From an uncultured Chlorobiaceae bacterium (GTDB taxonomy: Bacteria; Bacteroidota; Ignavibacteria; UBA10030; SZUA-254), in contig CAYPFY010000005.1 in assembly GCA_964410105.1 (NCBI GenBank), forward strand, positions 35,427 to 99,426: a DNA stretch of 64,000 nucleotides, in the 5' to 3' direction. Position 1 is the stretch's first letter. Every line of letters begins with the position of its first letter. Positions 3,496-32,793 of the stretch are shown one piece after another. The translations under genes were made by a program, and so were the position numbers. The notes beneath the pieces are model-generated. The model ran no database searches and was not told the origin of the DNA. It saw only the letters and a list, made by a program, of their open reading frames with translations.

Positions 3496-4647
3496 TCAAA
3501 AATCCCTCGTGTAGAAGAAGTAGAGAAACAGGGCAGAACCGGCAAGTTGAATGAGCCGGTAGAGGCGGAACTGTTTCTCCCTCAGGAAACTCCATGCGAA
3601 GGCGGCGAGAAGCATTGTCAGCGCGAAAGCCAGAAAGATCGCCGACGTTTGTAAGATCGAGAGATTTTGGCCCAGGGCCGTCTGGAGATTCGCCGCGGGA
3701 TTGACGGCCGAGCCGTAGAGGACGACCAGGTGGAGGACGTACACAAACAGAGATTCTTTTCCCAGCACTGTAACGGCGGGCATTTTGATCCACCGGGCGA
3801 AGCGCCAGATCCCTGAGATGATCACCAGCAGGGAGCCGACGCGAACCATGAAATAGTTCGGGCTCGTAAACCAGTAGTCGTAGTGCGGGTAGATATTTAT
3901 CGGAATCAGGTCGAAAGCCACCCCCGAGGCGATCAGGGCCAACCCGATGATGGTGAGCCGTCTCATGAAAGCGGCCTGGCGGTTTGCCGCGACCGCCACC
4001 ATGAACTCCCAGGAGACGATAACGCCTGCGAAGAGAAATCCTACATAGGGAAAAAGCGGGAACGGGGAAGCGTGGGCTCCGCTCATGAGCTGGGAAAGCG
4101 CCGGCGGAAAACTGCTAAAATCTGCATCCCAGACCAGCGGAGTCAGGAAACAGACAGACACAATCGCCGAGAGGACAAGCCCATAAAAGCGGGATTCGGT
4201 CTTGAACAAAAAGACGAGGCCGTGGAGTGCGAGCAGGCCGAGCCCGATGCAATGAAGCACATCGCATTGGAAGAGTTGAAGATAATCGGCCGTGGTACCA
4301 TCGGCCACGATCTTTCGAAAGGAAAAATAGGGAAGGTGGATAGCGAGGCCCAGAAGAAGAACGAGGATGAGCCGCTTCACGCGCCGGGCGAGCGGGGGAC
4401 CCCAATGATGGTATTCTTCCCACCGTCTCCTCGTAGAAATCACAAAGGTGAGCCCCGCCCCGAACAGGAACGCAGGGGCGCTCAGGCCGTGAAAAAACTC
4501 ATGAAACTGGAACAGCGGGGATTGTTGAGCGGTTTTCGGCAGAAACGTCCGGAACGTATGCCCTTCGAGCATAAGAAGAATGACGGCGCTCCGGTAGAGA
4601 TCGATGAAGAGAAATCGTTCGGTCCTCGGTGAGGCCTGCTCCGTCAT
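3496..4647 (-). CDS. Polytopic membrane acyl/acetyltransferase (DUF1624 / HGSNAT-catalytic-domain-like)
   Basis: N-terminal IDLYRSAVILLMLEGH, about 9-10 hydrophobic helices, FPLFPY and LGKESLFVYVLH motifs. Start set at ATG 4647. Confidence 0.7.
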   Translation of the reverse strand: MTEQASPRTERFLFIDLYRSAVILLMLEGHTFRTFLPKTAQQSPLFQFHEFFHGLSAPAFLFGAGLTFVISTRRRWEEYHHWGPPLARRVKRLILVLLLGLAIHLPYFSFRKIVADGTTADYLQLFQCDVLHCIGLGLLALHGLVFLFKTESRFYGLVLSAIVSVCFLTPLVWDADFSSFPPALSQLMSGAHASPFPLFPYVGFLFAGVIVSWEFMVAVAANRQAAFMRRLTIIGLALIASGVAFDLIPINIYPHYDYWFTSPNYFMVRVGSLLVIISGIWRFARWIKMPAVTVLGKESLFVYVLHLVVLYGSAVNPAANLQTALGQNLSILQTSAIFLAFALTMLLAAFAWSFLREKQFRLYRLIQLAGSALFLYFFYTRDF

Positions 4648-4658
4648 GGAGGGAACGG

Positions 4659-5636
4659 TCAGGCTGCGAGCACACAATTGATGGCGACGGTGTTCACGAT
4701 ATCCTCGACACTGCAGCCGCGGGAAAGATCGAAGGCGGGCTTCCTCAGGCCCTGCACGATCGGGCCGATGGCCTCTGCGCCGCCGAGACGTTCGGCGAGT
4801 TTATAGCCGATGTTACCCGCGTTGAGGTCGGGAAAGATAAGCACGTTTGCGTTCCCCTCGACGGGGCTTCCGGGCGCCTTGGCCGCCGAGACGCGGGGGA
4901 CGATTGCGGCGTCGACTTGTAGCTCGCCATCGGCAAGAATTTTTGGGTATTTCCGGCTAAAAATATCCTTTGCGCGCTGCACCTTCTCGACCAGAGGATG
5001 GCTCGCGCTCCCTTTAGTGGAAAAAGAAAGGAAAGCCACGCGCGGTTCCTCGCCGCTCAGTTTCCTGTGATTCTCGGCCGTTGCGACCGCAATATCAGCG
5101 AGCTGATCGGAGGAGGGATCAGGAACAACGGCCGAATCTGCGAATGAAAAAATCCGGTGTGGAAAAACCATAAGGAAGAAGCTGGAGGCGATGCTGATGC
5201 CTTCCCGCAGTCCGATCACCTGGATCGCCGCTCGGAGCACGTCCGGCGTGGTGGAGAGCGAGCCGGCCACACTTCCGTCCGCCATCCCTTCGCGGACCAT
5301 CATCGCTCCGAAATACAATGGGTTCGACATCGTTCTGCGGGACTCCTCGATCGTCATCCCCTTGAGTCTTCGGAGATTGAAGAAAATGTGGGAAAAGTCC
5401 GACAGCTTTTCCGATGTGGCCGGATCGATGATCCTGATGCCTGCCAGGCTGGTCTCGGGGGACGCAGCGAGAATAGCCTTCTCGCTTCCGATCAGGAGAG
5501 GGTTGGCGATATGTTCGTCGGCGAGAATCCTTGCTGCCTTTTGCGCGCGGGGATCATGGGCATCGGGAAGGACTACTGTCTTCCTGAGTTTCTTCGCTTC
5601 TTCCTTGATGGATTGGAGGAGATTTGACGGGGTCAT
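4659..5636 (-). CDS. pta: Phosphate acetyltransferase (short PTA_PTB-only form)
   Basis: VVLPDAHDPR, AFLSFSTKGS, DGELQVDAA, FPDLNAGNIGYK, DLSRGCS motifs. Confidence 0.93.
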   Translation of the reverse strand: MTPSNLLQSIKEEAKKLRKTVVLPDAHDPRAQKAARILADEHIANPLLIGSEKAILAASPETSLAGIRIIDPATSEKLSDFSHIFFNLRRLKGMTIEESRRTMSNPLYFGAMMVREGMADGSVAGSLSTTPDVLRAAIQVIGLREGISIASSFFLMVFPHRIFSFADSAVVPDPSSDQLADIAVATAENHRKLSGEEPRVAFLSFSTKGSASHPLVEKVQRAKDIFSRKYPKILADGELQVDAAIVPRVSAAKAPGSPVEGNANVLIFPDLNAGNIGYKLAERLGGAEAIGPIVQGLRKPAFDLSRGCSVEDIVNTVAINCVLAA

Positions 5637-5708
5637 GGGGGAGTTATTCCGGACCGCGGAAATTTCGTTCTTTTCCTGAGGAAAAGCAAATACCCGAATT
5701 GAAACGGC

Positions 5709-7196
5709 TTACGAGACGGGAGCGGGTCTCATCTCCTCAAAAACCATCCGTCCCGCCCCGGCAACAATCTCGGGGAGTTCCGCTATCTCCCGTGACGTAG
5801 TCCTGAAATTGACGATGCAGGCGCGGAGCAAAAACTTCCCGTCGATCACGGCATTGGAAAGAAATACCCTCCCCTCCTTCTGGATCCGGGCCAGAGTTCT
5901 TTCGTTCAGTTCGTTCAGCAAGCCGTCATTATCGGGACCCGGGCGGATTTCGGAGGGAACATACCGAAACGTCGCGATGCTGAGTCCCCGGGTGAACGCC
6001 TGAAGCTCACTGTGCCGAGCCACCGCCCGGTAAAGCTCCTCTGCGAGGGCAATGTCATCGGAGATCATCCCGACAAGACCCTCGCGCCCTGCGCTGAGAA
6101 GGGACATCCAGACTTTCAGGGCGCGGAACCCCCGGGAATTCTGCGGGCCATACTCAAAATAATTCAGCGGAGGTTTCTCTCCATCGTCTTGCAGCCGGTA
6201 ATAGGGAGGGTGAAAGCTAAACGCGTCGGTCAAAAACTCTGGCCGGCGGACGAGGGCGCACCCGGCTTCGAGCGGGGCATAGAGCCATTTGTGGGGATCG
6301 ACGGCCACGGAATCGGCGAGCTCAAGAGAGCGCAGATCCTCGTCCGCATCAGGCAGGGAGGCTGCGAGGGCGCCGTAGGCGCCGTCGACATGCAGCCACA
6401 GCTTATTGTCTTTGCAGATTCTCGAAATCTCACGGATCGGATCTATGGCGCCGGTGCCTGTCGTCCCGGCTGTGCCGATCACCAGGAAGGGTTGGTCCCC
6501 AGCTTTACTGTCCTTGGAGATTTGTTCCTCAAGATCGCCGGCATCCATTCGAAGATTCTTGTCGGTGGCGATCCAGCGGATAGCCTGCGTGCCTAATCCA
6601 AACATATCGGCTGCCTTCTCAATCCAGGTATGAGTCTCCTTCGAGGTGTAAATCCGAAGAGGTTCCCGACGCAGACCCAGGGAGCGGATATCCCAGTCTG
6701 CAGAAGCCTTTCGGGCGGCCAGGAAGCAGACGAAGTTAGCCATGTTACCTCCGCTCACCAGCAAACCGCCGCACTCTGTGGGATAACCGATCAGTTCAGC
6801 AATCCAGCGGACGGTTTGGGCTTCAATCTCGGTCGCGATCGGGGCAAGGTGGAATAATGCGACGTTCGGATTCACCGCTGCCGTGAGAAATTCGCTCAGA
6901 GCGCCTATGGGAGCAGCGGAGGAGGTTATGTACCCGAAAAAGCCCGGATGACCGTTCAGGAGCGAATGCTCAAGCATCAGCTGGGCGGCGTCATCGAGCA
7001 AAGTTGATACATCCCGGCCTTTTTCCGGTAGCGATGAATTCCCCAAAATCTTCCGGATTTCCTCCGGACTCTCTCCCCGGGTGACGGGTCGGGTCCGAAT
7101 CGTGGAGAGAAAGCCTGCGATCTGGTCGGTGAGCCGGTGACCCAGCGTTTTAAATAGTTCGGGATCAATTTCCAGGGAGGAATAGCGTTTCACCAC
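5709..7196 (-). CDS. Group II PLP-dependent amino-acid decarboxylase (aromatic/glutamate decarboxylase family)
   Basis: SGGNMAN, GTAGTTGTGAIDP, HVDGAYG, VDPHKWL (PLP lysine), SRGFRALK motifs. Confidence 0.88.
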   Translation of the reverse strand: MVKRYSSLEIDPELFKTLGHRLTDQIAGFLSTIRTRPVTRGESPEEIRKILGNSSLPEKGRDVSTLLDDAAQLMLEHSLLNGHPGFFGYITSSAAPIGALSEFLTAAVNPNVALFHLAPIATEIEAQTVRWIAELIGYPTECGGLLVSGGNMANFVCFLAARKASADWDIRSLGLRREPLRIYTSKETHTWIEKAADMFGLGTQAIRWIATDKNLRMDAGDLEEQISKDSKAGDQPFLVIGTAGTTGTGAIDPIREISRICKDNKLWLHVDGAYGALAASLPDADEDLRSLELADSVAVDPHKWLYAPLEAGCALVRRPEFLTDAFSFHPPYYRLQDDGEKPPLNYFEYGPQNSRGFRALKVWMSLLSAGREGLVGMISDDIALAEELYRAVARHSELQAFTRGLSIATFRYVPSEIRPGPDNDGLLNELNERTLARIQKEGRVFLSNAVIDGKFLLRACIVNFRTTSREIAELPEIVAGAGRMVFEEMRPAPVS

Positions 7197-13902: not shown

Positions 13903-16047
13903 TCACCGGACAAGGAGGAGTTTTCTGGCGGCGAAAAACGATCCGGATTGCAGCGTGCAGAGATAAACACCGCTCGGATACCCTTTCGCATCCCACGAAA
14001 TCTTGTAAAAACCCGGCTCCATTTCCTTTGAGACGATCGACGCGATCTCCCGCCCGATGAGATCGTAGATCCTGATCCTCACAAACCCTCGCCTTGGAAC
14101 TGCATACTCGAATGTCGTCCCTGGATTGAAGGGATTCGGGTAATTCTGGCTGAGTGAAAATTTTTCGGGGAGGGGTCGCGTTTCCCCCGCCGAGGTGATC
14201 ATCTCAGATAAAGGCCGCCGCCATACTCCACCTCCATAAATTCCGGCAAAAATTTCCGTGCCCCTGATAGCAAGCGAGCGAACATCGATATTCACAAGCC
14301 CTGCGACCGCCAGAGCCCAGTTCTGGCCGTTGTCGTTTGAAACGTATATCCCCCAGCCGATCGTGGCGGCAAAAATATTCGACCCTGAGATCGCCAGGGA
14401 GGAGATTCTCCTGTGATCGAGTCCGCTATTGATCTCTGACCAGCTCAGCCCCCGGTCGGTGGACAGGAAGACGCCGGCTCCATCTGTGCCGGCAAAAATG
14501 CTCGAATCCCTGACAGCAAGCGTTAGGATTCCGGAGAGTTGGGGAGGTGTAGGAAGGAGAGCCCAACTCACTCCCCCGTCGGTTGAACGAAAAATGCCCG
14601 GGCCCGAGCTTCCGGCAAGGACGGCAGGAACGCTTCCCGTGTCTCCGGGGATTACGGCCAGCGCTGATATCGTGGATGCTGTAAGTCCTGAGTCGGCGCT
14701 GAACCACGTGCTTCCGTCGTCGGTCGTCCTGAAAATTCCGTTCCCCTCAGTTCCCGCAAGGGCAATCGATCCCCCTGAGCCATCGGGGAATGAGGCGAGG
14801 GTGAGCACAGACATATTTTTCAGCCCGGGACCAAGCCACGTTGATCCGTTATCGGAAGAGACGAAGACACCTCCCCCGCTCGTTCCCGCGAAAATGGTCT
14901 CCCCGCTTTTCCTATCTCGTCCGACGGCAAGGGAGTAGGTGTCGTGGGTCGTCATCCCGCTTGTCCGTGTGGTCCATGCGGATCCTCCGTCGGTTGAACG
15001 GGAAACACCATTGATCGCACCTGCAAAAATCTCCGAATCGGTGACTGCAAGCGAGTGGACGAGAGTAGCGTTGAATCCTGCATTGCTCTCGGTCCAGGTC
15101 GACCCCTCATCGGTCGATCGGAATACGCCGCAGGCTTGCGTCCCGGCAAGCAGTATCCTCGCGCCGGAGATCTCGGCGAACACAGCTAGCGAGAAGACAT
15201 TGAGGTCGGTCAGGCCAGAGTCTGCGTGTTCCCAGTGGGCGCCCGAATTCGTCGAGCGAAAAACCCCATGTGAACCACCGACACAAACAGTATACTTGCC
15301 AAGATTGTTGGGCATTCCGACAATCGTTCGCACGTCGGCGTCGACGAGACCGGAATCGATCTCAAGCCAGCTGCCTCCCCTGTCGGAAGAGAGGTATACC
15401 CCTGAGCCAGCGGTGCCCGCAATAATCACCGTATCGAGGGCGAAAAGGGCCCGAATTCCGAAAGGCGGGAGATCCCCGGTGACATCGTTCCAGCTGATTC
15501 CATTATCAGTGGATCGATAAACCCCCGCGCCCGCTGCGCCAATAAAGATCTCCGTATCGAGCACAGCGACTGAGGTGAACCCGTCTTCCGGGAGGCCGGA
15601 CCTGGTTGTGTCCCAATTCATTCCGTTGTCGGTGGAAATGAACATACCCTGGTCAGTCCCCGCAAAAACGGTCGACCCTCTTGCGGCGAGGGACAGAATC
15701 GAGGCACTCCCGATCGGTCCGACAAAATTCTGGTACCAGGTGGATCCGCCATCGCTCGAGAAGAGGATGCCGTCGGAGCTCGTTCCGTAAAAGATTGACG
15801 AATCGTTGAATGCGAACGTCTGGACCGAAGAGCCAATGAAATCGTAGGCTGATTTCCAGCTCAGACCCTTGTCCGTTGAATGATAGAATCCCAGATCGGA
15901 CGTGCCGAGGAAGAGTTCAGAATCATGGACCCCAAACGACAGGACGAATCCGCCACGGGGGCCATTGGTCGGTTGCCACTGGGCAACGGATTTTAGGGAT
16001 GGAAAGGTCGCGGCGATGACCGTTAAGAGAATAAGCCGTGTTTTCAT
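13903..16047 (-). CDS. Secreted Asp-box (BNR) repeat beta-propeller protein with T9SS-type C-terminal domain
   Basis: Signal peptide (SVA|Q), 13 SxDxGxxW-type Asp-boxes counted, C-terminal SQNYPNPFNP...GVY...RKLLLVR. Confidence 0.85.
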   Translation of the reverse strand: MKTRLILLTVIAATFPSLKSVAQWQPTNGPRGGFVLSFGVHDSELFLGTSDLGFYHSTDKGLSWKSAYDFIGSSVQTFAFNDSSIFYGTSSDGILFSSDGGSTWYQNFVGPIGSASILSLAARGSTVFAGTDQGMFISTDNGMNWDTTRSGLPEDGFTSVAVLDTEIFIGAAGAGVYRSTDNGISWNDVTGDLPPFGIRALFALDTVIIAGTAGSGVYLSSDRGGSWLEIDSGLVDADVRTIVGMPNNLGKYTVCVGGSHGVFRSTNSGAHWEHADSGLTDLNVFSLAVFAEISGARILLAGTQACGVFRSTDEGSTWTESNAGFNATLVHSLAVTDSEIFAGAINGVSRSTDGGSAWTTRTSGMTTHDTYSLAVGRDRKSGETIFAGTSGGGVFVSSDNGSTWLGPGLKNMSVLTLASFPDGSGGSIALAGTEGNGIFRTTDDGSTWFSADSGLTASTISALAVIPGDTGSVPAVLAGSSGPGIFRSTDGGVSWALLPTPPQLSGILTLAVRDSSIFAGTDGAGVFLSTDRGLSWSEINSGLDHRRISSLAISGSNIFAATIGWGIYVSNDNGQNWALAVAGLVNIDVRSLAIRGTEIFAGIYGGGVWRRPLSEMITSAGETRPLPEKFSLSQNYPNPFNPGTTFEYAVPRRGFVRIRIYDLIGREIASIVSKEMEPGFYKISWDAKGYPSGVYLCTLQSGSFFAARKLLLVR

Positions 16048-16131: not shown

Positions 16132-16743
16132 TCACCACCCTGCGCCAAGCCACAGATCAAAGGAATCCTTCCTGACGCTGAGAAACTGCGAATTGTACGA
16201 TTCCTGGAAATCGAAATTATATCTTAACTCCACTGACATCAGGGGAAACACCATGGCGCTCGATTGGGCGCCGATGCCGACCGATGCCCCGAGAGCTGTC
16301 TTCCTGAACTGGTCATAGACGCCGTTAAAAATGTCCTGATCCGATTCGTAGCCCACCAAAAAATCCAGGCGTGGACCGGCAAAGAAGAAGGGGGACAAAA
16401 AGTCTCCGGCGACCGTCGCCTTGGCAAACACCGGGATGGAGATGTAATCGACGCGGTTCCACTGAGTCTCCTTGAGAAGATTCAGCTGGTCCTGACCCAT
16501 TCCGCGCTGGATGATCTCCAGCTCACCGATGAGGGACAGGGGAGAATGAACGGACCATTCGGCGAAAAAGGCCGCGCCGAACCCGAATCTGCGCTTGGTC
16601 TCGAGCGACGGGAGGTAATTGTACTCGAATGATTGCCCGGCGAGGGTACCCGCGAACTTTACGCCGAGGTGATCGGGGGATTGTCCACGCGTGCCCGCAC
16701 AGGGAATTGCAAGCAACAGCAAAGCGCACCCAGCCGTCTTCAT
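16132..16743 (-). CDS. Outer-membrane beta-barrel (PorT/OmpA-like porin family) protein
   Basis: Signal peptide (TRG|Q), GVKFAG, YISIPV, GPRLDFL, ELRYN, C-terminal aromatic residue (LGAGW). Confidence 0.75.
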   Translation of the reverse strand: MKTAGCALLLLAIPCAGTRGQSPDHLGVKFAGTLAGQSFEYNYLPSLETKRRFGFGAAFFAEWSVHSPLSLIGELEIIQRGMGQDQLNLLKETQWNRVDYISIPVFAKATVAGDFLSPFFFAGPRLDFLVGYESDQDIFNGVYDQFRKTALGASVGIGAQSSAMVFPLMSVELRYNFDFQESYNSQFLSVRKDSFDLWLGAGW

Positions 16744-17155: not shown

Positions 17156-19465
17156 ATGAAGAATCTCATCCTGTTACTCGTTGGGACTGTCACAATTCTG
17201 CACGCGCAGGACGCCTCCGGGCAGGACACTGCAATTTACTACTTCCCCCCCGTCACCGTCAGTCCGACGGCGGCGTTTGAGAGACAGACCCCTGTCACAT
17301 TCTCGAATTTGACCAGGGAGCAGATACAGGATCGCTACTCCATTCAGGATGTCCCGGTTTTGCTCTCTGAATTGCCGTCGATCACCTATTATTCGGAGAA
17401 TGGAAACGGCATCGGATACAGTCACCTGAACCTGCGGGGATTCGAGCAGCGCCGGCTCTCGATAATGGTCAACGGGGTTCCACAGAACGACCCGGAGGAT
17501 CATGACGTCTACTGGATCGATTTCCCCGATCTCATGGCGGGGGCGGAAAACATCCAGGTGCAGCGCGGGGCCGGGAGCGAATTCTACGGACCTCCTGCGA
17601 TAGGCGGTTCGATCAATATCATCACGAATCCGTTCAGTCAGAGGCCGGGGGTGCGCCTGGAGAGCTCCTTTGGTTTCCAGGAATTCGGGGATAGCAGCGA
17701 ATCGGTCATGCTCGGGACCCGGAAATTCCAGGCATCCGTCAATTCCGGGCTGATTGACCGCCGGTATCTGATATATGGAAAGCTCGGAAAAATCGTGAGC
17801 AACGGGTACAGAATAAACTCCTGGGCCGAGCTCAATTCCTACTTCCTCGGCGCCGTGCGGATTGATGAAAACATGACCACCCGCATCAATTTCTATGGGG
17901 GCCCCATTCAAGATGCCTTGGCCTACGTAGGGATCCCCAAGTCGTACAACGAGGACAAGCGGCTGCGGAGGATCAACTATAGCGACTGGGCATATGACAG
18001 CACGGGGATGAATCTTTCGTACAGCGTCCTGCAGAAGCCGCAGGCCACGGAGGAATTCTCGCAGCCTCACTACGAGCTTATTCATGACTGGAGAATATCG
18101 AGAGAAGTCGCGCTCCACAACACCCTTTTCTATCTGCAGGGAGACGGGTACTTTCTTTACGACGGCGACTGGATCCCGTATCCCGATGCGAACGGAAACC
18201 CGACCCCCTCCATACTCTGGTTTCGCAACAATGTGGGGTACGACTCCACCTTCGGCGTATCGACATTTCCTGCGTTCATCATCAGGGGCTTCGTCGGCAA
18301 CAAGCAATGGGGGTGGCTGCCGCACCTGGAGATAAACCATGGCACCGGGAATCTCATCCTCGGGGGCGAAGTCAGGATACACCGTTCCCTTCATTACGGT
18401 AAAATCGAGTATGCCTCGCAATACCCTTCCGCCTCCTTTGACCCCGACTTCAGGATCTACGAATACAACGGCGAGAAGGACATTTTTTCGCTCTATGGTC
18501 ATGAGCTGTACCGCGCAGACGAAAAGACAAACGTCATGGCGGAGATCCAGCTTGCCTGGAACCGTTACGGAATTCAAAACGAGAAATTTCTGGGGAACAA
18601 CTTTTCCTACCCCTATTTCTTCGTCAATCCCCGCATCGGGCTGAACGAGAATTTTTCCGACAACCTCAATGCTTACGCATCGGCAGCCTACACATCGAGG
18701 GAACCGACGCTCAGGAACCTCTATGCTGCGGAGGACACCTATTTTGGGGCAGCGCCGCAATTCAGGGGAGACACCACAGGCGGGGTCGTCCGCTATGACT
18801 TCACCCAGCCGCTGGCTCAGCCTGAGCATCTTCTTGACATCGAAGTGGGGGGGTCACTCAAGACTGTCAGGGCACAGCTTTCAGCAAGTTTCTTCTGGAT
18901 GGAATTCACCGATGAGCTCGTCAAGAGCGGGCAGGTGGACATCTTCGGCCAGCCTGTAACAGGCAATGCCGAGCGAACACGCCATCTTGGGGTCGAGATT
19001 GAGGGTTCGGCTGGGCTCTCGGATGCCATCACGATTGGGGGAAACGCGGCGATCTCGAGCAATCGTCTTATCCGGCACACCGAATACGTTCCTTCCACCG
19101 ATGCGACGGGGGCAGCGGTGTACGCGCCGGTTTCGCTCGACGGAAACCCGATCGCGGGCTTTCCCGACTTTCTCGGGAACCTGCGGCTCTCGTACCGGGG
19201 AGGAAGCATTGCGTCCTCGCTCACGGTCAAGTATGTGGGGAGTTTTTACACCGACAATTTCAAGAACGAGGCGAATAAGAACGACGACTATATCGTTGTC
19301 AACGGCGAAATCCTGTTGGATCTCCTAGGATTCAACTCGGAGTTCACCCTTCGGGGCGAGGTGCGGAATATATTTAACAGGCTGTACTTTGCTGGCGGGG
19401 AAGGGGAAAAATTTTTCCCGGCGGCCGAGCGGAATTATCTCTTCGGGATCGTGGCGAGATTCTGA
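17156..19465 (+). CDS. TonB-dependent receptor, probable thiamine uptake
   Basis: Signal peptide (LHA|Q), plug motifs LRGF..R...NGVP.ND and IQVQRG...GG.INI, C-terminal NIFNRLY...F; under TPP riboswitch control. Confidence 0.88.
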   Translation: MKNLILLLVGTVTILHAQDASGQDTAIYYFPPVTVSPTAAFERQTPVTFSNLTREQIQDRYSIQDVPVLLSELPSITYYSENGNGIGYSHLNLRGFEQRRLSIMVNGVPQNDPEDHDVYWIDFPDLMAGAENIQVQRGAGSEFYGPPAIGGSINIITNPFSQRPGVRLESSFGFQEFGDSSESVMLGTRKFQASVNSGLIDRRYLIYGKLGKIVSNGYRINSWAELNSYFLGAVRIDENMTTRINFYGGPIQDALAYVGIPKSYNEDKRLRRINYSDWAYDSTGMNLSYSVLQKPQATEEFSQPHYELIHDWRISREVALHNTLFYLQGDGYFLYDGDWIPYPDANGNPTPSILWFRNNVGYDSTFGVSTFPAFIIRGFVGNKQWGWLPHLEINHGTGNLILGGEVRIHRSLHYGKIEYASQYPSASFDPDFRIYEYNGEKDIFSLYGHELYRADEKTNVMAEIQLAWNRYGIQNEKFLGNNFSYPYFFVNPRIGLNENFSDNLNAYASAAYTSREPTLRNLYAAEDTYFGAAPQFRGDTTGGVVRYDFTQPLAQPEHLLDIEVGGSLKTVRAQLSASFFWMEFTDELVKSGQVDIFGQPVTGNAERTRHLGVEIEGSAGLSDAITIGGNAAISSNRLIRHTEYVPSTDATGAAVYAPVSLDGNPIAGFPDFLGNLRLSYRGGSIASSLTVKYVGSFYTDNFKNEANKNDDYIVVNGEILLDLLGFNSEFTLRGEVRNIFNRLYFAGGEGEKFFPAAERNYLFGIVARF

Positions 19466-21788: not shown

Positions 21789-23435
21789 CTATTTCATGAG
21801 AAGCATCTTCTTCACCTGTTGAAACTTCCCGTTGTTTGCAACGATCCGATAAAAATACGTTCCGCTCGCAAGATCCGATGCGTTCACATCCACCTCATGG
21901 AGGCCCTGGGAGTAGTACTCGTTATGAACCAGGGTTCGCACTTCTCTCCCCAATAGGTCATAGATCGTTAGACTAACGGGTCCGGGTTCCCGAAGAGTGA
22001 ACCGTATCTTGGTAGCCGGATTGAAGGGATTCGGATAGTTCTGCGAGAGTTGATATTGATTCGGGTCGGATGCAGACTGTGGAGAACCCCCAACGAAGGC
22101 GGCGCGCGACGTAAAAGTACCTCCGGTATAGTACTTCACAAGGAACAGATCCTGCGGAAGCCCGCTGAGGGTATTCTGATTTGTGGAGCCGAAGAGCACC
22201 AGACTGCTGTCATTATTGCTCGACGCCATGCCGACGCAGAGATTGCCGAGGCCGCCACCTCCGGCATTGCTCGGATCGTATATGGTTTCCGATTGGAATG
22301 TGCCTGAGGAATTAAATCTGTCAAGAACATACTTCGTAGGACTGGCATTTGTCGTCCCGCTGGTATAGAAGTCCCCGGTTGTCCCATTAATCCTGATGGT
22401 AGTCCAGGTGGAGGGCGTCGTAGCATCTCCCGACCATGCGTTCACCCCTGTCGTCTTGTCGATCTTGAAAAACTGTGAGCCGTTTGCGTGATACCCAGCA
22501 GCATAAACGGCGTTGTTATCTATAGCCATTCCTCCCGACGCAAACTGGAACGATGAGCAATTATACGAGCGGTTCGCCCAGCTTTGAGTTCCCGAGGGGG
22601 TATATTTGATGGTGGCGACATCGGCGTCGCCGCACGACGCGTAGCTGGTGCCGGTTACATAGCATCCGGACGTGTCTGCGATCAGATTCAGAGGAAGGTC
22701 GGAGCCCCCATTATCGTAGGTTTTCACCCACTGCTGGGCAATATTCAGGTCATACTTCACGGTGAGATAGTTCGGATTGGAGCTCCCTGCCTTGGCGAGC
22801 ACATAGATCGCCGAATTGGGAACCAGGGCAGCGCCTACGACGATATCCGAGTCCCCGCTGTCGTAATGACTGTCTCCCTGGAAGCCGAGAACGGCGTCGT
22901 ATTTCAATATCGTGACGTCGTATTTGGTGGAAACAGTGACCCTGCTCATTCCGACAACGTAAAACACGTTTGATCCGGGTCCTGCTGGCAGGATTTTGAC
23001 TGCGTCGTCATTTCGGTTAAGGGAGTTATAGTCATACCGTTTCACGTTGGAATTGCTCATGACGGTTGTTCCCCCCGTATCGATAACAAAGGATGCTATG
23101 TCGTAATCGGTACCGGACTGGCTCTTCCCAGTAATAAACAGGTAGGAGCCCTGGACGGCGATTGATTTCGCCTGGTCGTTATTGCCATTGTCGTACGTCT
23201 GCAACCACTTCAGCACACCGTTCCGGTCGAACTTTGCAACAAGATAGTCATACTCATTCGACGTATTCTTGATCCACCCGGCGACATAAATATTGCCGTT
23301 TACATCGACCGCCGCGTCATTGATCTGGTCATCCTTTCCATAACCGTCAAGTTGCAGTTTAAATTTATATGTTGGTTGGCCGAACGCGCTCGTGAGGCCG
23401 ACGCAAAGAAGACCTATGAGAATAGAGAATTTCAT
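21789..23435 (-). CDS. Secreted beta-propeller (SBBP-like repeat) protein with T9SS-type C-terminal domain
   Basis: RBS GGAGG, ATG 23435, signal peptide (AFG|Q), repeats of the type D....AVD..GN.YV.G......D....K.D..G...W...YD, C-terminal SQNYPNPFNP...KKMLLMK. Confidence 0.85.
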   Translation of the reverse strand: MKFSILIGLLCVGLTSAFGQPTYKFKLQLDGYGKDDQINDAAVDVNGNIYVAGWIKNTSNEYDYLVAKFDRNGVLKWLQTYDNGNNDQAKSIAVQGSYLFITGKSQSGTDYDIASFVIDTGGTTVMSNSNVKRYDYNSLNRNDDAVKILPAGPGSNVFYVVGMSRVTVSTKYDVTILKYDAVLGFQGDSHYDSGDSDIVVGAALVPNSAIYVLAKAGSSNPNYLTVKYDLNIAQQWVKTYDNGGSDLPLNLIADTSGCYVTGTSYASCGDADVATIKYTPSGTQSWANRSYNCSSFQFASGGMAIDNNAVYAAGYHANGSQFFKIDKTTGVNAWSGDATTPSTWTTIRINGTTGDFYTSGTTNASPTKYVLDRFNSSGTFQSETIYDPSNAGGGGLGNLCVGMASSNNDSSLVLFGSTNQNTLSGLPQDLFLVKYYTGGTFTSRAAFVGGSPQSASDPNQYQLSQNYPNPFNPATKIRFTLREPGPVSLTIYDLLGREVRTLVHNEYYSQGLHEVDVNASDLASGTYFYRIVANNGKFQQVKKMLLMK

Positions 23436-23843
23436 TGCGACCTCCAATGGTTTTAGAGTTTTTTTCTGTTTTCCTGCCTGCGCAAAAGAAGGAGTGCGCT
23501 CTGGCGTGGCAGACGCACGGGCGACACGGATCATCCTCTCAGTCCGTCCCTTTCCAGTCTATGGTGAGACTTTTGCAAAAGTGCGCTGGATCCGTCGACA
23601 GCTATGGGTAGTGGGCAGGGAAGGCCCTTGCGAAATCGTCCCCAGAAACCGAGGCTCGATTACAGACCAGTTCCCCCGTCAACGCTTCTATGGCTTATGC
23701 ACTGACGACTGCCTCCCGGATGGGGGAGCCCCCGGCCCAAAGCTCTGCGAAACGAGATCTCTCTGCGCCTATCCTGGATTGTTACCCGGAGAATTCAGCC
23801 TCTCCGGGTTTCGAGGGTGAAGTGGTGAAACGAAGGTAATGTC

Positions 23844-23937: not shown

Positions 23938-24579
23938 TTATTTCACAATTCCTTTCAGAATCGCGTATCGGGTGAGTGTAATGGCATCGTGGAGGTCCAG
24001 TTTATTCATGATCTGCTGCCGGTACTTTTCGATCGTCTTAGTACTCAGGCAGAGCGTAGAGCTGATTTGTGAATTCGTTTGACCGATGGATATACACTGA
24101 AGGATTTCGCGTTCCCTGAGCGTAAGAACCGGTTCGAGGGGTGTCGCGCCGCGGATCTGAAGAATCGCCTTCGAAACGGTGGGGCTGAAATAAGCGTTTC
24201 CTTTCTTGATCTCACGGATTGCGAAAATCAGCTCGCTGGAGGCGGTTTGCTTTACAAGATAACCTCGTACCCCTGCCTGGATCGCGTGCGTAACGCATTC
24301 CACATCATCTGACATTGAAAGAATGATCAGACCGATGGAGGGGTCGCACTCGTGGATTCTGGCCGCTGCCTGGAGCCCATTCATCTCCGGCATGGTGATA
24401 TCCATGATCACGATCGAAGGTCGAAGATCCCGGGCGAGCTCGAGAGCGTCGTTCCCCGTGGCGGCTTCTCCGACCACGGTGATATCAGGTTCTGCCGAAA
24501 GGAGCGCTTTCAGCCCCTGCCTAAAAATTGTATGGTCGTCAGCCAGCAGCACGCCGATTTTCGACATTTTTTCCCTCAC
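23938..24579 (-). CDS. NarL/FixJ (LuxR-HTH) family response regulator
   Basis: LLADDH, MDITMP (phospho-Asp), GYLVK, LTLREREIL...G.TN..I...L.LS.KT...Y; GTGA overlap with the kinase stop. Confidence 0.95.
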   Translation of the reverse strand: MREKMSKIGVLLADDHTIFRQGLKALLSAEPDITVVGEAATGNDALELARDLRPSIVIMDITMPEMNGLQAAARIHECDPSIGLIILSMSDDVECVTHAIQAGVRGYLVKQTASSELIFAIREIKKGNAYFSPTVSKAILQIRGATPLEPVLTLREREILQCISIGQTNSQISSTLCLSTKTIEKYRQQIMNKLDLHDAITLTRYAILKGIVK

Positions 24580-25820
24580 TTCCCCGGCATGGGAAGCCTC
24601 ACATGGAGTGCGGTTCCCCGGCCGGATTTTGAATTGATATCGAGACTGCCTCCCACAAGTTTCATCCGCTCCTGCATTCCGAGCAATCCGAGATGGGGCC
24701 TCGAGCCGTCAAAGTTGCGGCTGACGTTATCGGGGTCAAATCCACGGCCATTATCCCGGATGGCCAGCACGAAACACCCGTCCTCCTGGGAGCACTCCAC
24801 AGCGACACTGGTCGCTGAAGCGTGCTGAGCGATATTGGTGAGCGATTCCTGCAGAACTCGGTAGAGCGCCAGCTTCTCCGAGCGGCCGAACAGCTCTATC
24901 GAGGGGCATTCGACAAAATCAATGGCCACTTTTGTCCGATTTGAGAATTCTCTCAAATATCCCCGGACGACAGGCAGGAAACCCACCTGGTCAAGCGATT
25001 CGGGGAGAAGATCCTGAAGAACCTGCCGCACCCTCCCCATGACCTCGCGGGTCAGGTCCTGAGCATCCTGTAGCCGGTCGTGGGCGTCTTTCGTTGCAAT
25101 TCCCGGATCCTTTTTCAAGACCTCCAGGTTTATGGTGATCGCGGCCAGCGTCTGACCGATCTCGTCGTGGAGTTCGCGTCCGATCCGCAGACGATCATTT
25201 TCCTGCACCTGGATGACCTGACGGCTCAACTGAGCCAATCGGTCCTGCATCGCAACCGCCTGGTGGAGCAGCAATTCGGATTTTCGCCGAGCGGAGCGCA
25301 GGGTACGGTCATAGCTCACCCGCTCGGTGATATCCCTGGCAATGCCCCGAACGGCCCTGGTCTTGCCATTGTCGATCACGGGCGAACTCCGAAATTCGAA
25401 CACGAACAATCGTGACTTATCCCTGGAGAAAACCGGGATCACTCCCGAAACTTCCTTCATGGAGTCGGCAACAGCCTTCAGATATCTTACAAATTTTGGA
25501 CGCATTCCTGGGGAGAGAAAATCGGTGACATCCTTCCCGATAAGCGCATCCGGCGGGTATCCGAGCAATGTCGAAGCAACCCGATTCACGCTCAGGACAA
25601 CGCCCGTCGCCGAGTGGACATAGACCAGATCCGAGACATTTTCGAAAAGATCGGCGTATCTCCGCTCATTCTCCTCAAGGAGCGCAAAATGTTCCCTCTG
25701 CAGTCTGGCCTTTGTCCTCTCGTTCAGGAAAAGGAGCGCGACCATTCCGATCCCGAGGGTAAGGGCGACGATCGTTCCTACAAGGAGGATCCACCAGAAC
25801 TCAGATGTTGGACCGGACAT
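24576..25820 (-). CDS. Sensor histidine kinase: 1 TM + PAS + HisKA_3 + HATPase_c
   Basis: True start ATG 25820 (MSGPTSEFWWILLV). Single N-terminal TM, PAS (LFENVSDLVYV...RGIARDIT), RELHDEIGQ, RVLQESLTN, DNGRGF, GLLGMQER. Confidence 0.93.
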   Translation of the reverse strand: MSGPTSEFWWILLVGTIVALTLGIGMVALLFLNERTKARLQREHFALLEENERRYADLFENVSDLVYVHSATGVVLSVNRVASTLLGYPPDALIGKDVTDFLSPGMRPKFVRYLKAVADSMKEVSGVIPVFSRDKSRLFVFEFRSSPVIDNGKTRAVRGIARDITERVSYDRTLRSARRKSELLLHQAVAMQDRLAQLSRQVIQVQENDRLRIGRELHDEIGQTLAAITINLEVLKKDPGIATKDAHDRLQDAQDLTREVMGRVRQVLQDLLPESLDQVGFLPVVRGYLREFSNRTKVAIDFVECPSIELFGRSEKLALYRVLQESLTNIAQHASATSVAVECSQEDGCFVLAIRDNGRGFDPDNVSRNFDGSRPHLGLLGMQERMKLVGGSLDINSKSGRGTALHVRLPMPGK

Positions 25821-26437
25821 AGGAAAGCCAAGGCAAAACAGATATTTGTCGCGATGGTGAGGCTCCAGTGCAAAACCCAGACGCCGATTGCTTCCTGAAC
25901 ATGGAAGTTCGTCAACACATTCAGGAGCAGGAAGAGCGTCATATTTCCCGCAAAATAAACGATGACCCCCGCAACTGCCCACACCCGGAAATTCCGGCTC
26001 AGCGGCGAGGCCCCCGCGGAACGGATGGCGAACACAGCTCCGACAGCGGCGGCGATCATCACCGCGGAGGTGACAGCTTTGGTAAACTCGGCCTGGCCGG
26101 AGAGAGGTTCAAAAGTGAACTTGGAGATCAGCCAGAATCCCGAATACGCAAGAATGCTCCATCGCAACAGCTTTGCAAACGTTCGGCCCTTTTGCCACGG
26201 AGCGACCAACATACTCAGCACGGCAAATTCTATCAGATTATAGACATGGAGGACCCACAAGTTCTGCATGTGCCGGATAGCCATGAAGAACGTGACAAAT
26301 TCGGTTGTCGCGCCCAGCGAAACATACGCAAGGAGCAATCTCCGCTCCTTGTCAAGAAGCGATCTCCTGTAAAAACTGGCACCTAACGGCAGGGCGTTAG
26401 ATGCCAGATCAACATACGCAAGGAGAGGAAGATTCAC
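25778..26437 (-). CDS. Standalone polytopic (about 7 TM) membrane protein, candidate co-receptor of the kinase
   Basis: About 7 hydrophobic segments, NLWVLHVYNLIEF and W...G..VYF.GN...F motifs; 3' end overlaps the kinase start by 43 nt. Confidence 0.75.
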   Translation of the reverse strand: MNLPLLAYVDLASNALPLGASFYRRSLLDKERRLLLAYVSLGATTEFVTFFMAIRHMQNLWVLHVYNLIEFAVLSMLVAPWQKGRTFAKLLRWSILAYSGFWLISKFTFEPLSGQAEFTKAVTSAVMIAAAVGAVFAIRSAGASPLSRNFRVWAVAGVIVYFAGNMTLFLLLNVLTNFHVQEAIGVWVLHWSLTIATNICFALAFLCPVQHLSSGGSSL

Positions 26438-26455: not shown

Positions 26456-26875
26456 TTACCGTTCGAGAGCGCTTTTTCCATCACAGATTGGTGGACAAGG
26501 AAACCCGTACTCAAGTATGTTACCGCCGGTTAGATCCGCGCCGGTCGCGTCGATCCCCACAATTACCAGAGCAGATGCTCCGGTGAGTTTCCTGCCGTAA
26601 TAGGCACGAATACCGACGCATTGCGGCTGATTCAAGACTGCGAGCAGAGCGTCGCGAGAAAAAACTTCTCCCAGGACAGAACCGGTCGCCGCTGAGTTCT
26701 TGAAATTCTTCACAAGCTCAACGGCATCGCTGAGCGAAATCGCATGACTCTCGTGACCCGTGAACTGAGAGGATTGGGCCCGGAGCTCGCCCTCGGGGGA
26801 AACCTGCCATAAAGATACGATAAAGATTGCAAAAAACAGAACTCGGGCAGGCGAAAGGTCATGATTGAACGTCAT
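26456..26875 (-). CDS. Small exported protein with CVGIRAYYG and C-terminal PCPPIC motifs (function unknown)
   Basis: Strong RBS AGGAGG, signal peptide ending ELRA|Q, mature part about 106 aa with 3 Cys; first gene of the cassette. Confidence 0.8.
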   Translation of the reverse strand: MTFNHDLSPARVLFFAIFIVSLWQVSPEGELRAQSSQFTGHESHAISLSDAVELVKNFKNSAATGSVLGEVFSRDALLAVLNQPQCVGIRAYYGRKLTGASALVIVGIDATGADLTGGNILEYGFPCPPICDGKSALER

Positions 26876-27069
26876 AATTCCTCCTATAATAAAAGATTGA
26901 TAGAATCAGTTAATGTGTTTCCGGAGGGATAGAAGTCAGCCACATCATGCGCGTCCCCTGCTGATCCGATCATGGACTCACCGGGGCTTAATTGGTGAAG
27001 GAAAGGTCGACGTGAAACGGAGATGATTCCCCTGGGACTCCTTTCAGAGAGGTTGGGGTCGTCTGTAAC

Positions 27070-27098: not shown

Positions 27099-27160
27099 TG
27101 GGGTATACACCTATTTTCGGGGGGGGTGATTACCCCATGGGGAGGGGGGTCATCACCCCC
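27096..27160. promoter_or_regulatory. Operator copy 2: three GGGGT-N4-ACC(CC) inverted repeats starting at 27100, 27123 and 27146
   Basis: ggggt-atac-accta, ggggt-gatt-acccc, ggggt-catc-acccc with exact 23-bp periodicity. Confidence 0.8.
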
Positions 27161-27355
27161 CACTTTCAGAGAATGGCTGAGGTTCTTTAAGAAACTCTGA
27201 GAAACTTACTGCGATTCTAGCGAAGGAGTGGTGCCACGTTGGTAGGGCAGTCGCTACCGGGTTTCTGGATCTGTCAGACGACGAGGAAAGTGGATCTGGT
27301 CAGACTGCAACGGATCGACGCACCTTGCAATCGTCCGGCTGTCAGATTGCGGGTT

Positions 27356-31100: not shown

Positions 31101-31182
31101 AGCAGATTGATCTGATGAGAGAGGAGAGAACGAGCGCGGTTTGCCACCGCGCTCGTCCGGATCCCTCGGCGGGGCAGATCAC
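28147..31182 (-). CDS. Amylo-alpha-1,6-glucosidase (glycogen-debranching, (alpha/alpha)6) fused to a C-terminal glucodextranase-type DOMON domain
   Basis: AGLPWF.DYWGRDSFISLPG, YNTADGT, TWMDA, RPNQL, YHNG.VWTWL, SQAWS; C-terminal D..GDE.Y.YP, LDI..F, AIDKDG, GCQDD motifs. Confidence 0.82.
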   Translation of the reverse strand: MICPAEGSGRARWQTALVLSSLIRSICFPQESASSLDGLKIDVPPGFSRELAYTNKESGVFYTETNGRHRSGWQGWRIMSTEMLDDYAISVGGKYLDPAASDASVFPHELVRVYPNGVREILSLVDSLNAFMVILENLPPGSVAVSPLFEGNSRDFLVKFEKNVLLVARSSHQHRASREDYPVWVGITVRGGMPDFTARLSGPGCSPAALLCKPRRGERVEVVFAAGDDETHTINLAASVSGNSDELRRKRKKRLEKILARSECRTDNPRLDKALAWAKISIDALVMNQRKKGIFAGLPWFDDYWGRDSFISLPGAALVTGDFADAREILRSFAGWQDTNSGSTTYGRIPNLVTASTMAYNTADGTPRFVMALRDYVRYSGDTAFAAEMWPVVKRSIDGTLKYHTDPLRFLTHDDAETWMDAVGPAGPWSPRGNRANDVQALWYEQLRAGAAMSPAKDKRLTWTRLADSVRRNFEKFVDSGKRLLYDHLRADGTPGRELRPNQLFDVGSLVLSDDPIALHVFNAVTESLVYPYGIASLSQDDDNFHPFHHFPNYVQDAAYHNGIVWTWLSGKWIDIACGYGLPDLAFRVTENMAGQILDRGAVGTLSELIDAAPRPRENEPRLSGAFSQAWSLAEFVRTFYQSYLGVTVAGERPDSCRLVLYPNFPSEVSYARAILHVKDHSILAEFRAQKGDVTINLSSSEAGSDLDVEFDLNRGFHKYVAARGILHPQGTISFSKKGGRISLTGDGSASDSTFPNSQPVPLLAGIKLATPRIREGLPSLKSPPYAVLSHAEIKRENQHARVIANVSDPAGDETYLYPLTPSLQPGSLDITRFRVTSDDDFVYFYLKFRKLSNPGWHPEYGFQLTYAAIAIDKDGIPGSGRTDVGMNSKFILDSRYAFEDIIYVGGGVRVMNDSGKTLAEYVPLAGDELKPLGDAPRGKIEFAVPVKILGRPSPRWNFSVLVGCQDDHGGAGIGEFRTVEATPSEWTGGGKKDSSLPNVYDVILPNPHKE

Positions 31183-31742
31183 TTCTTATTCTTGGCCTGC
31201 TCGGCGGCTGTCCAGGGAGGAACAATCTGATTCATCCGGGCGTAGGCGATGGACTGTCCGAGATGTTCGTGCATATGAAGCGCAGCGTTGAAATAGACTC
31301 CTCGGACGGTCGTTTCTTCCCCGAACAATTTCGCGGGCTTGTCGAGATCGGCATCGGAGGTATTTTGAATCGCGGCGCGGACGAAGTCGAAAGATTTGGA
31401 GAGCTCCTTCTTGACATCTGCCTTTTCCGTCACCGTCTTCTCCATATCCTTTGCAACGTTATCAGGCTTCTTCACCCCGGCCATCGACGGAAACAGATAG
31501 TTCGCTCCGGCGATGTGTGTGAAAACCTCGCTGACGGACCGGACTCCCTCCATGGGGCGCCAGCCATATTTTCCGGCGGGCATGGCGTCGGCGAGGCCTT
31601 CGATCTTTTCCTCAACGTCTTTCAGCTGGGCGAGGAATTCTGCCCTGAATCCCCCGGCTGGCTTAGCGGCTTTCGACGTATCCTGCGCGGAAAGACGGCC
31701 GAGACCGAGGGCAACGAGAACTGACAGAATGAAAACTCTCAT
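31179..31742 (-). CDS. Exported DinB-family protein
   Basis: Signal peptide (LSA|Q), WRP..GVRS..EVF.HIA, H..EH.GQ...YAR...VPPW. Start at ATG 31742. Confidence 0.85.
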   Translation of the reverse strand: MRVFILSVLVALGLGRLSAQDTSKAAKPAGGFRAEFLAQLKDVEEKIEGLADAMPAGKYGWRPMEGVRSVSEVFTHIAGANYLFPSMAGVKKPDNVAKDMEKTVTEKADVKKELSKSFDFVRAAIQNTSDADLDKPAKLFGEETTVRGVYFNAALHMHEHLGQSIAYARMNQIVPPWTAAEQAKNKK

Positions 31743-31805
31743 GGAAAAACTCCTTTGATAAGTGATGATCCAGTATACCAAAAAAAACACAATAATGCAG
31801 AGAAT

Positions 31806-32331: not shown

Positions 32332-32793
32332 ATGAAATCCATATTTTTTGCCGCATTGCTCAGCCTCTCAACACTTGCCTACGGCCAGCGGGGACCGATG
32401 CATCGCCATCACCCGGGATTCGGCCATCGCGATCGCATCGTGGAGAGATTGAAGCTTACCGACGACCAGCGCAAACAGTTTGACAAAATATCTTCCGCCC
32501 TCGCGCGGAAGCAAATCGCACTCCGAGCAAAGATCATTTCGATGCGCGTCGACATGCGGGATTTGGTCCGGGAAGATCCTCCAAGCAAGACGAAGATCGA
32601 GACCCTCGAAAAGGACATGAACAGGCTTGAGGGGGATATCAAAGCCAACCGTACCGACTTCTGGTTTGACGTGAACACAATACTGACGCCCGAGCAGAAG
32701 CAGGAATGGAAGGCCGCTCTCGCTTCCCCGGCGCGCAGGCCGATGAGAGGATTGATGCACTGGGAGGGTGGGGGGGACGGCGCCGGGCGGTAG
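32332..32793 (+). CDS. Spy/CpxP (LTXXQ) family periplasmic protein
   Basis: Signal peptide (AYG|Q), LKLTDDQ and ILTPEQ motifs, helical. Confidence 0.85.
   Translation: MKSIFFAALLSLSTLAYGQRGPMHRHHPGFGHRDRIVERLKLTDDQRKQFDKISSALARKQIALRAKIISMRVDMRDLVREDPPSKTKIETLEKDMNRLEGDIKANRTDFWFDVNTILTPEQKQEWKAALASPARRPMRGLMHWEGGGDGAGR

Follow-up and report, generated by a model that had tools for sequence, protein, structure and literature searches.

A small cysteine-pair protein and a GPCR-shaped 7TM protein as a candidate input pair of a two-component system in an uncultured Ignavibacteria bacterium

Accessory proteins turn two-component systems into three-component systems in several bacteria, as in NreA-NreB-NreC, LiaF-LiaS-LiaR/VraTSR, UhpC-UhpB-UhpA and HbpS-SenS-SenR. 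The gene for the small accessory sensor NreA, a GAF protein, comes first in nreABC; UhpC is a polytopic MFS membrane receptor that signals to its kinase; and HbpS is a secreted, redox-responsive accessory protein. In the agr and com systems the signal and its receptor co-vary, and ComP and ComA belong to the HisKA_3 and NarL classes. Bacterial seven-helix receptors of the 7TMR-DISM type correspond to Pfam PF07695/PF07696, and the Sco/SenC copper chaperones carry a C-x3-C motif, part of a copper site, on a thioredoxin fold.

The window analyzed here is a stretch of 64,000 nucleotides from an uncultured Chlorobiaceae bacterium (GTDB class Ignavibacteria), and it holds a four-gene unit that can be compared with these systems. 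Its general kind is already known, namely a two-component system with accessory input proteins. Our searches of libraries and literature, however, turned up no earlier description of the two protein families that precede the kinase, of their strict pairing, of the fold of the small domain, which has no structural neighbour, or of the allele swapping at the 7TM gene. A first-pass annotation of this DNA had noted the small first gene; the context that proved decisive, an obligate 7TM partner gene and a kinase/regulator pair, was absent from it. The features of the unit, with the evidence for each in brackets, are the following:

26456-26875, minus strand: coding sequence (with its stop codon) of the 139-aa small protein, which opens the four-gene unit (translation and homologues)
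26880-26885, minus strand: Shine-Dalgarno sequence AGGAGG, 4 nt before the ATG of the small gene (sequence)
26777-26875, minus strand: predicted signal peptide of the Sec/SPase-I type, codons 1-33, ending in LRA↓Q (sequence, homologue alignment and Q-rule context)
26459-26776, minus strand: mature alpha/beta domain of about 100 aa, codons 34-139, of an unannotated family (AF2 model)
26618-26620, minus strand: codon of Cys86, a variable Cys/Ala/Val position uncoupled from the Cys pair (domain alignment and co-variation)
26483-26500, minus strand: PCPPIC, residues 126-131, with the conserved Cys127/Cys131 pair (alignment and co-variation)
26376-26407, minus strand: perfect 13-bp hairpin followed by U5, within the first codons of the 7TM gene (fold z = -3.0)
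25778-26437, minus strand: partner gene for a 219-aa 7TM protein, predicted N-out/C-in, starting 18 nt after the small gene (AF2 model and topology prediction)
24576-25820, minus strand: kinase with a single TM, PAS, HisKA_3 and HATPase, and no periplasmic sensor domain (domain search)
23938-24579, minus strand: response regulator of the NarL/LuxR type, Response_reg plus GerE, overlapping the kinase gene by 4 nt (domain search)

Translation of the first gene reproduced the open reading frame, the leader, the CVGIRAYYG stretch, the near-terminal PCPPIC and the three cysteines that the first-pass annotation had reported. The mature protein has 106 aa and exactly three cysteines (Cys86, Cys127 and Cys131), with CVGIRAYYG at residues 86-94 and 8 residues following PCPPIC. 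Because 1016 representative clusters match it and its dN/dS is 0.03-0.16 between close species pairs, the small gene is clearly real, and the same dN/dS values place it under purifying selection. A search for expression data led only to runs of DNA sequencing, from rock metagenomes, that contain the window sequence. The 480-nt gap that separates the small gene from a PhzF-like gene contains, about 250 nt ahead of the small gene, a 16-nt inverted repeat (GGGGGGTGATTACCCC / GGGGTCATCACCCCCC, window positions 27121-27161, 94% complementary with a 9-nt spacer), which may act as an operator or terminate transcription of the upstream gene.

The leader of the small protein reads MTFNHDLSPAR-VLFFAIFIVSLW-QVSPEGELRA↓Q, with the arrow marking the cleavage site. 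It displays the features of a Sec/SPase-I leader that follows the Q-rule: a charged n-region (Arg11), a hydrophobic core of 12 residues (VLFFAIFIVSLW), a small residue at position -1 and Gln at +1. Canonical AxA↓Q sites are aligned, in the closest homologues, at the same position as the LRA↓Q of the window, and judging by these sequence features the window's small protein is very probably Sec-exported. The first-pass annotation had pointed to an N-terminal Gln (pyroglutamate) after cleavage; Gln at +1 after the signal peptide is a general Bacteroidetes Q-rule (PMC5837995, PMC10653852). Within the window, approximately 7 of 10 plausible leaders end in x↓Q, among them SVA↓Q, TRG↓Q, LHA↓Q, AFG↓Q, LSA↓Q and AYG↓Q; the genes with signal peptides that were considered lie at 13903-16047, 16132-16743, 17156-19465, 21789-23534, 31179-31790 and 32332-32793. 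Since most leaders of the window have Gln at +1, this genome obeys the Bacteroidetes Q-rule, and the Gln is a generic feature.

The periplasmic location that had been assumed is probable for the window protein, given its predicted Sec leader, but does not extend to the family as a whole. Among the best 153 representatives, a hydrophobic N-terminus is missing from 35 of 109 single-domain proteins and from 35 of 44 tandem ones, and leaderless proteins would make up about a quarter to a third of the members as estimated from their sequences. The leaderless state was confirmed on the DNA, using the longest possible ORFs, in five loci (L006, L007, L015, L010 and L020; L numbers denote fetched loci throughout). 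On a FastTree tree of the short domain from 207 single-domain members, the leader state switches at least 14 times, an approximate count, as compared to a mean of 47 for shuffled labels. The Cys pair is retained among both leader-bearing and leaderless members.

A HMMER search, run exhaustively over 1.84 billion cluster representatives (50% identity clusters), retrieved 1016 representatives of the small-protein family at E<=1e-3 and 345 at E<=1e-10. The family spans Ignavibacteria, Bacteroidota, Gemmatimonadota and Edwardsbacteria, and the named genomes that carry relatives include Ignavibacteria, Bacteroidota MAGs, Gemmatimonadales, Candidatus Edwardsbacteria, Hymenobacter, Fibrella, Larkinella and Chitinophaga. 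All 458 matches obtained in a word-index search carry the source name "hypothetical protein". Neither the single sequence nor a 100-sequence profile matched Pfam or NCBIfam, and the same two queries found no match among PDB sequences beyond a weak one to a PDI domain (E = 1). The candidate family DUF6108 (PF19603) was rejected, with a score of 11.9 bits against a gathering threshold of 23.9 (E = 0.24, over 34 residues only); when 100 family members were compared with Pfam, none matched DUF6108 at E<=0.01 and none matched any family. One relative (P0170), out of 120 relatives among those listed, bears the precomputed tag PF28057.1. This accession is absent from our local copy of Pfam and from the searched literature, and it may be a very recent Pfam entry that already covers part of the family. 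The searched literature likewise had nothing of relevance on CPPxC, on PF28057 or on 7TM proteins as accessories of HisKA_3 kinases.

The AF2 model of the small domain, built on 100 sequences, reached a pLDDT of 90. Its elements are, in order, an N-terminal extended segment, a helix (residues 48-61), a strand (69-71), a second helix (74-81), a beta-hairpin (88-95/101-108), a loop, a short strand (125-127), the CPPxC motif and the tail. Searching the PDB with this model using Foldseek retrieved no neighbour (best E = 0.35, TM <= 0.25), and nothing meaningful was found in BFVD. A thioredoxin fold was matched neither by HMM and profile searches of the small protein nor by Foldseek.

Conservation was counted in alignments of 199, and then 325, domains. 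Cys127 and Cys131 are both present in 164 of the 199 domains, with one of them alone in just 7, and the CPPxC pair is kept in 205/209 (single-domain members). The pair is therefore among the most conserved features of the family, in line with the alignment check that the first-pass annotation had proposed. Two other expectations of that annotation were not borne out. Instead of a hypervariable tail, the segment after the last Cys has an essentially fixed length of about 8 aa (median 8, IQR 8-10), with Leu at +6 in 163 of 205 members and an N/S-x-L-N/T pattern. The third cysteine is not part of a three-Cys site: about one domain in four has Ala or Val in place of Cys86; its frequency is 0.77 with the Cys pair and 0.70 without it, and this near-equality points to a buried variable position and not to a third ligand.

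Co-variation with the Cys pair was found only for Glu122 (present in 0.70 of domains with the pair vs 0.19 of those without, p = 3e-9), Pro126, Pro128, Pro129 and the tail residue Leu137, with no co-variation for His44, Gln83, Arg90, Tyr92 or Asp114. A three-Cys or Cys2-His site was rejected on the basis of this test, neither Cys86 nor His44 being coupled to the pair. Since the co-variation is limited to C-terminal residues, the domain combines two separable conserved features. One is a polar core set, in which Gln83, Arg90, Tyr92 and Asp114 are near-invariant and His44 is usually kept (73-86% of domains); the other is a C-terminal cap with the consensus Glu-x4-Cys-Pro-Pro-x-Cys-x5-Leu. The 58 tandem proteins are informative in this respect: the Cys pair is found in the C-terminal domain only in 24, in the N-terminal domain only in 5, in both domains in 22 and in neither in 7, and these proteins keep Arg90, Tyr92 and Asp114 in both domains. 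As the pair occurs in just one domain of 29 of the 58 proteins, it is not needed for folding and behaves as a functional site. From these alignments we infer that Cys127/Cys131 is a functional site rather than a folding staple.

To place the small gene in its genomic context, 40 fetched loci from at least four phyla were searched with profile HMMs of the small and 7TM families. A 7TM-family gene follows the small gene, on the same strand and within 500 nt, in 41 of 42 evaluable cases. Of these loci, 11 had been left out when the 7TM profile was built, and 10 of them matched. The 7TM family was recovered from the fetched loci only; a word-index homology search with the 7TM protein gave just 3 matches. 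The order small gene, 7TM gene, HisKA_3 kinase and NarL regulator is seen in L001, L003-L012, L014, L015, L017, L020-L030, L036, L037 and L040. Overall, the kinase and regulator follow in most loci with enough sequence, including those with leaderless (L036, L037) and tandem (L040) members. The association with a kinase and a regulator is conserved and co-operonic across lineages, as is the case for accessory subunits of two-component systems.

The genes that follow the pair can differ: an AraC-type regulator takes this place in L035 and a hybrid HisKA kinase in L038, and in Fibrella the pair stands alone. In Hymenobacter (L021, L022) and Larkinella (L024, L025, L026), two small + 7TM pairs precede one kinase and one regulator, and the kinase is short (TM + HisKA_3 + HATPase, 270-284 aa). 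This arrangement suggests that several input pairs can feed one kinase. The small + 7TM pair is the constant, portable element of these loci, and the type of kinase and regulator is exchangeable. Additional copies of the 7TM family that have no small-protein gene before them were found in L008 (6826-7443), L016 (2240-2857) and L033 (9088-9717), and the 7TM protein can therefore also occur alone. An apparent 7TM-kinase fusion in Gemmatimonadales (L010, L011, L014) was rejected, as it reflects long spurious ORFs in high-GC DNA and the genes are separate.

The kinase of the window has its probable start at MSGPTSEFWW, which gives its gene an overlap of 43 nt with the 7TM gene. At the start of its single, N-terminal TM helix stands a conserved (D/E)-F-W-W motif (EFWW, DFWW or EIWW; residues about 5-12, window positions about 25790-25810) that is found at the same place in L001, L003, L004, L005, L008 and L009 and could be where the 7TM protein makes contact. 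The next gene after the regulator (21789-23534, minus strand) codes for a protein of 581 aa that combines beta-propeller (SBBP) repeats with a C-terminal sorting domain for type-IX secretion. This protein places the genome in the FCB group and is a possible target of the regulator. In L001, the closest metagenomic relative, the cassette is followed (3690-6702) by genes for a 315-aa protein of unknown function, a 384-aa radical-SAM protein with a Cys-rich C-terminus and a 131-aa protein of unknown function, a trio that is not present in the window.

The 7TM partner has no NCBIfam match and no Pfam match at E<=1e-3, the 7TMR-DISM, AgrB, CPBP and ComQ models included. Its AF2 model is confident (pLDDT 92.6, pTM 0.88), and the top 50 PDB neighbours of this model are all GPCR-type bundles: LYCHOS, class A/B/C receptors and Ste2. 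These matches have TM scores of 0.45-0.57 and are below significance (E >= 0.02), so that the modeled protein may be said to resemble GPCRs in shape, with homology not demonstrated. The K+R bias predicts an N-out/C-in topology for 23 of 23 7TM partners, whatever the leader state of the accompanying small protein. An inverted topology for the partners of leaderless members was therefore rejected; the C-terminal cytoplasmic tails of these partners tend to be longer and more basic. The hairpin with its U-run, which lies 50 nt past the stop codon of the small gene where the 7TM coding sequence begins, may attenuate transcription within the operon, after the small gene. It is absent from L001, L003, L004 and L005 and is specific to this genome.

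Comparison of closely related species revealed that divergence at these loci is concentrated in the 7TM gene:

Chitinophaga (L027/L028/L030): 7TM gene 68% amino acid identity, dS 2.0; small gene, kinase, regulator and flanks 94-100% identity, dS 0.10-0.26
Larkinella (L025/L026): two 7TM genes with 45% and 80% amino acid identity, dS 3.0 and 1.7; other genes dS 0.46-0.96
Fibrella (L032/L023): 7TM gene 40% amino acid identity; flanks 80-93% identity

Identity of the small gene stays at 94-95% where that of the 7TM gene falls to 45-68%. Despite its saturated dS (1.7-3.0), the 7TM gene has a dN/dS of 0.08-0.15. The contrast between this saturated dS and the low dS of the small gene, kinase, regulator and flanking genes (0.1-0.65) indicates that the 7TM gene alone has diverged into old allelic types, which close relatives exchange. 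The small gene and the 7TM gene lie on opposite sides of the swap boundary, and the position of the small gene outside the swapped segment argues against a co-diversifying signal-receptor pair. No consistent concentration of the allelic differences on one membrane face was seen. Hypervariability that is confined to the 7TM gene represents an unusual population-genetic signature.

Based on comparative sequence evidence, the reading that we hold to be reasonably probable makes the small protein an accessory or co-sensor subunit in a signalling module of four genes. It would associate with the adjacent GPCR-shaped 7TM membrane protein, and the two together would supply input to the downstream one-TM kinase, which has no periplasmic sensor domain of its own; the kinase would in turn phosphorylate the NarL-type regulator. 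Cys127 and Cys131 would form a redox- or metal-responsive element that latches the C-terminal cap, most likely, in the periplasm, as a reversible i/i+4 disulfide or a metal-binding pair. We arrive at the co-sensor reading because of the 41/42 synteny with the 7TM gene, the recurrent gene order, the portability of the pair and the sensor-less kinase. That the small protein physically contacts the 7TM protein or the kinase is something we infer, the one link between them being synteny.

Some observations speak against this reading. The 7TM partners of leaderless members share the N-out/C-in topology, so that the small domain would have to work on either face of the membrane, which is hard to envisage for a single fixed interface; the more basic tails of those partners offer the only hint of an explanation. 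In addition, the 7TM gene is hypervariable and the small gene does not diversify along with it, which argues against a tight, allele-specific interface. The lack of significance of the GPCR-like fold matches also counts against it. A more far-reaching version of the co-sensor reading, which we regard as improbable, is a bacterial GPCR-shaped receptor system, previously undescribed, with a dedicated protein co-receptor that can act on either face, ancient exchangeable 7TM alleles, a sensor-less kinase and a CPPxC redox or metal latch that gates the interaction. If true, such a receptor with an allelic 7TM component could serve self/non-self or kin discrimination, or its diversity could be phage- or toxin-driven.

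The order of a small gene, a polytopic membrane protein, a kinase and a regulator recalls agrBDCA and comQXPA, and deeply diverged 7TM alleles among near-identical neighbours are reminiscent of pherotype loci. It might accordingly be asked whether the small gene encodes a pheromone, secreted as a protein or peptide, and the 7TM protein is its receptor or processing enzyme. We find this very unlikely. The first-pass annotation had envisaged a releasable signal from a disulfide-closed mini-loop; however, the entire 100-aa domain is conserved and confidently folded, in place of the short hypervariable mature part of a pheromone, and even the tail past the last Cys is conserved and of fixed length. 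The leaderless representatives (35/109 single-domain and 35/44 tandem) and the 14 or more leader switches on the tree are likewise at odds with secretion. The small gene, at 94-95% identity, is not swapped along with a 7TM allele at 45-68%, the 7TM partner has no AgrB, CPBP or ComQ match in Pfam and a model that is GPCR-like rather than AgrB-like, and the four-gene unit contains no exporter or maturation gene.

The Cys pair can be read differently, as the active element of a free-standing thiol-disulfide oxidoreductase or metallochaperone that works through CPPxC and has no direct signalling role. The pair is proline-flanked and nearly invariant, yet dispensable for folding in one domain of the tandem proteins; Sco proteins share such a C-x3-C pair, and the weak PDB sequence match was to a PDI domain, albeit at E = 1. 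This possibility seems decidedly improbable, given that no thioredoxin-fold match was found by sequence profile or Foldseek, that a Cys2-His site is unsupported by the behaviour of His44, that no cytochrome oxidase or copper genes lie nearby, and that 7TM synteny in 41 of 42 cases would be hard to explain for a housekeeping protein. The synteny evidence serves equally a protein that binds no signal at all, either a negative regulator that holds the 7TM-kinase pair off or an insertion factor for the 7TM protein, in the manner of LiaF or CpxP. First place in the operon, together with the hairpin and U-run behind it, could raise expression of the small gene over that of the downstream genes, which would suit a stoichiometric inhibitor. 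The present data fit an inhibitor and a co-sensor equally well. However, the hairpin is not conserved in relatives, and the highly conserved polar residues, along with the Cys pair, look more like a specific site for binding or reaction than like a passive scaffold. We consider an inhibitor or assembly factor unlikely, and the co-sensor reading is the one that we prefer.

Two-component kinases that have no sensor domain are common, with few of their inputs known, and the small + 7TM pair appears to be a portable input module for such kinases. With more than 1000 clusters of the small protein, and the 7TM family beside them, this is a widespread pair of unannotated families, and the module is present in culturable genera (Chitinophaga, Hymenobacter, Larkinella and Fibrella).

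Set against the systems described at the outset, the small protein shares with Sco/SenC a Cys-x3-Cys pair with an adjacent proline in an exported protein, but differs from them in having no match to the thioredoxin fold, no co-varying His ligand and a different genomic context. The 7TM partner, like 7TMR-DISM proteins, is a bacterial receptor-like bundle with an N-out topology that would feed histidine kinases; in contrast to them it is free-standing, with no fusion to a kinase and no extracellular DISMED domain, and a separate small protein is encoded before it. The similarity to agr (AgrB-AgrD-AgrC-AgrA) and comQXPA lies in the four genes, where a kinase and a regulator are joined by a polytopic membrane protein and by a small product encoded first or second, and in one component being deeply allelic between close relatives. 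Unlike in those systems, the small product is a conserved, folded 100-aa domain, many members of which have no export signal, the hypervariability resides in the 7TM gene only, and there is no similarity to AgrB or ComQ.

In their logic, NreABC, LiaFSR, UhpABC and HbpS-SenSR would be the closest analogues of the module, by analogy and with no homology to their accessory proteins: neither the small protein nor the 7TM protein has sequence or fold similarity to NreA, LiaF, UhpC or HbpS. As in the Nre, Lia, Uhp and HbpS systems, a kinase and regulator pair of the HisKA_3/NarL class would take its input from separately encoded partners of the same operon. The module of the window differs from these three-component systems in having two accessory parts, the small domain and the 7TM protein, and in that the small part is predicted to be periplasmic or cytoplasmic depending on the lineage.
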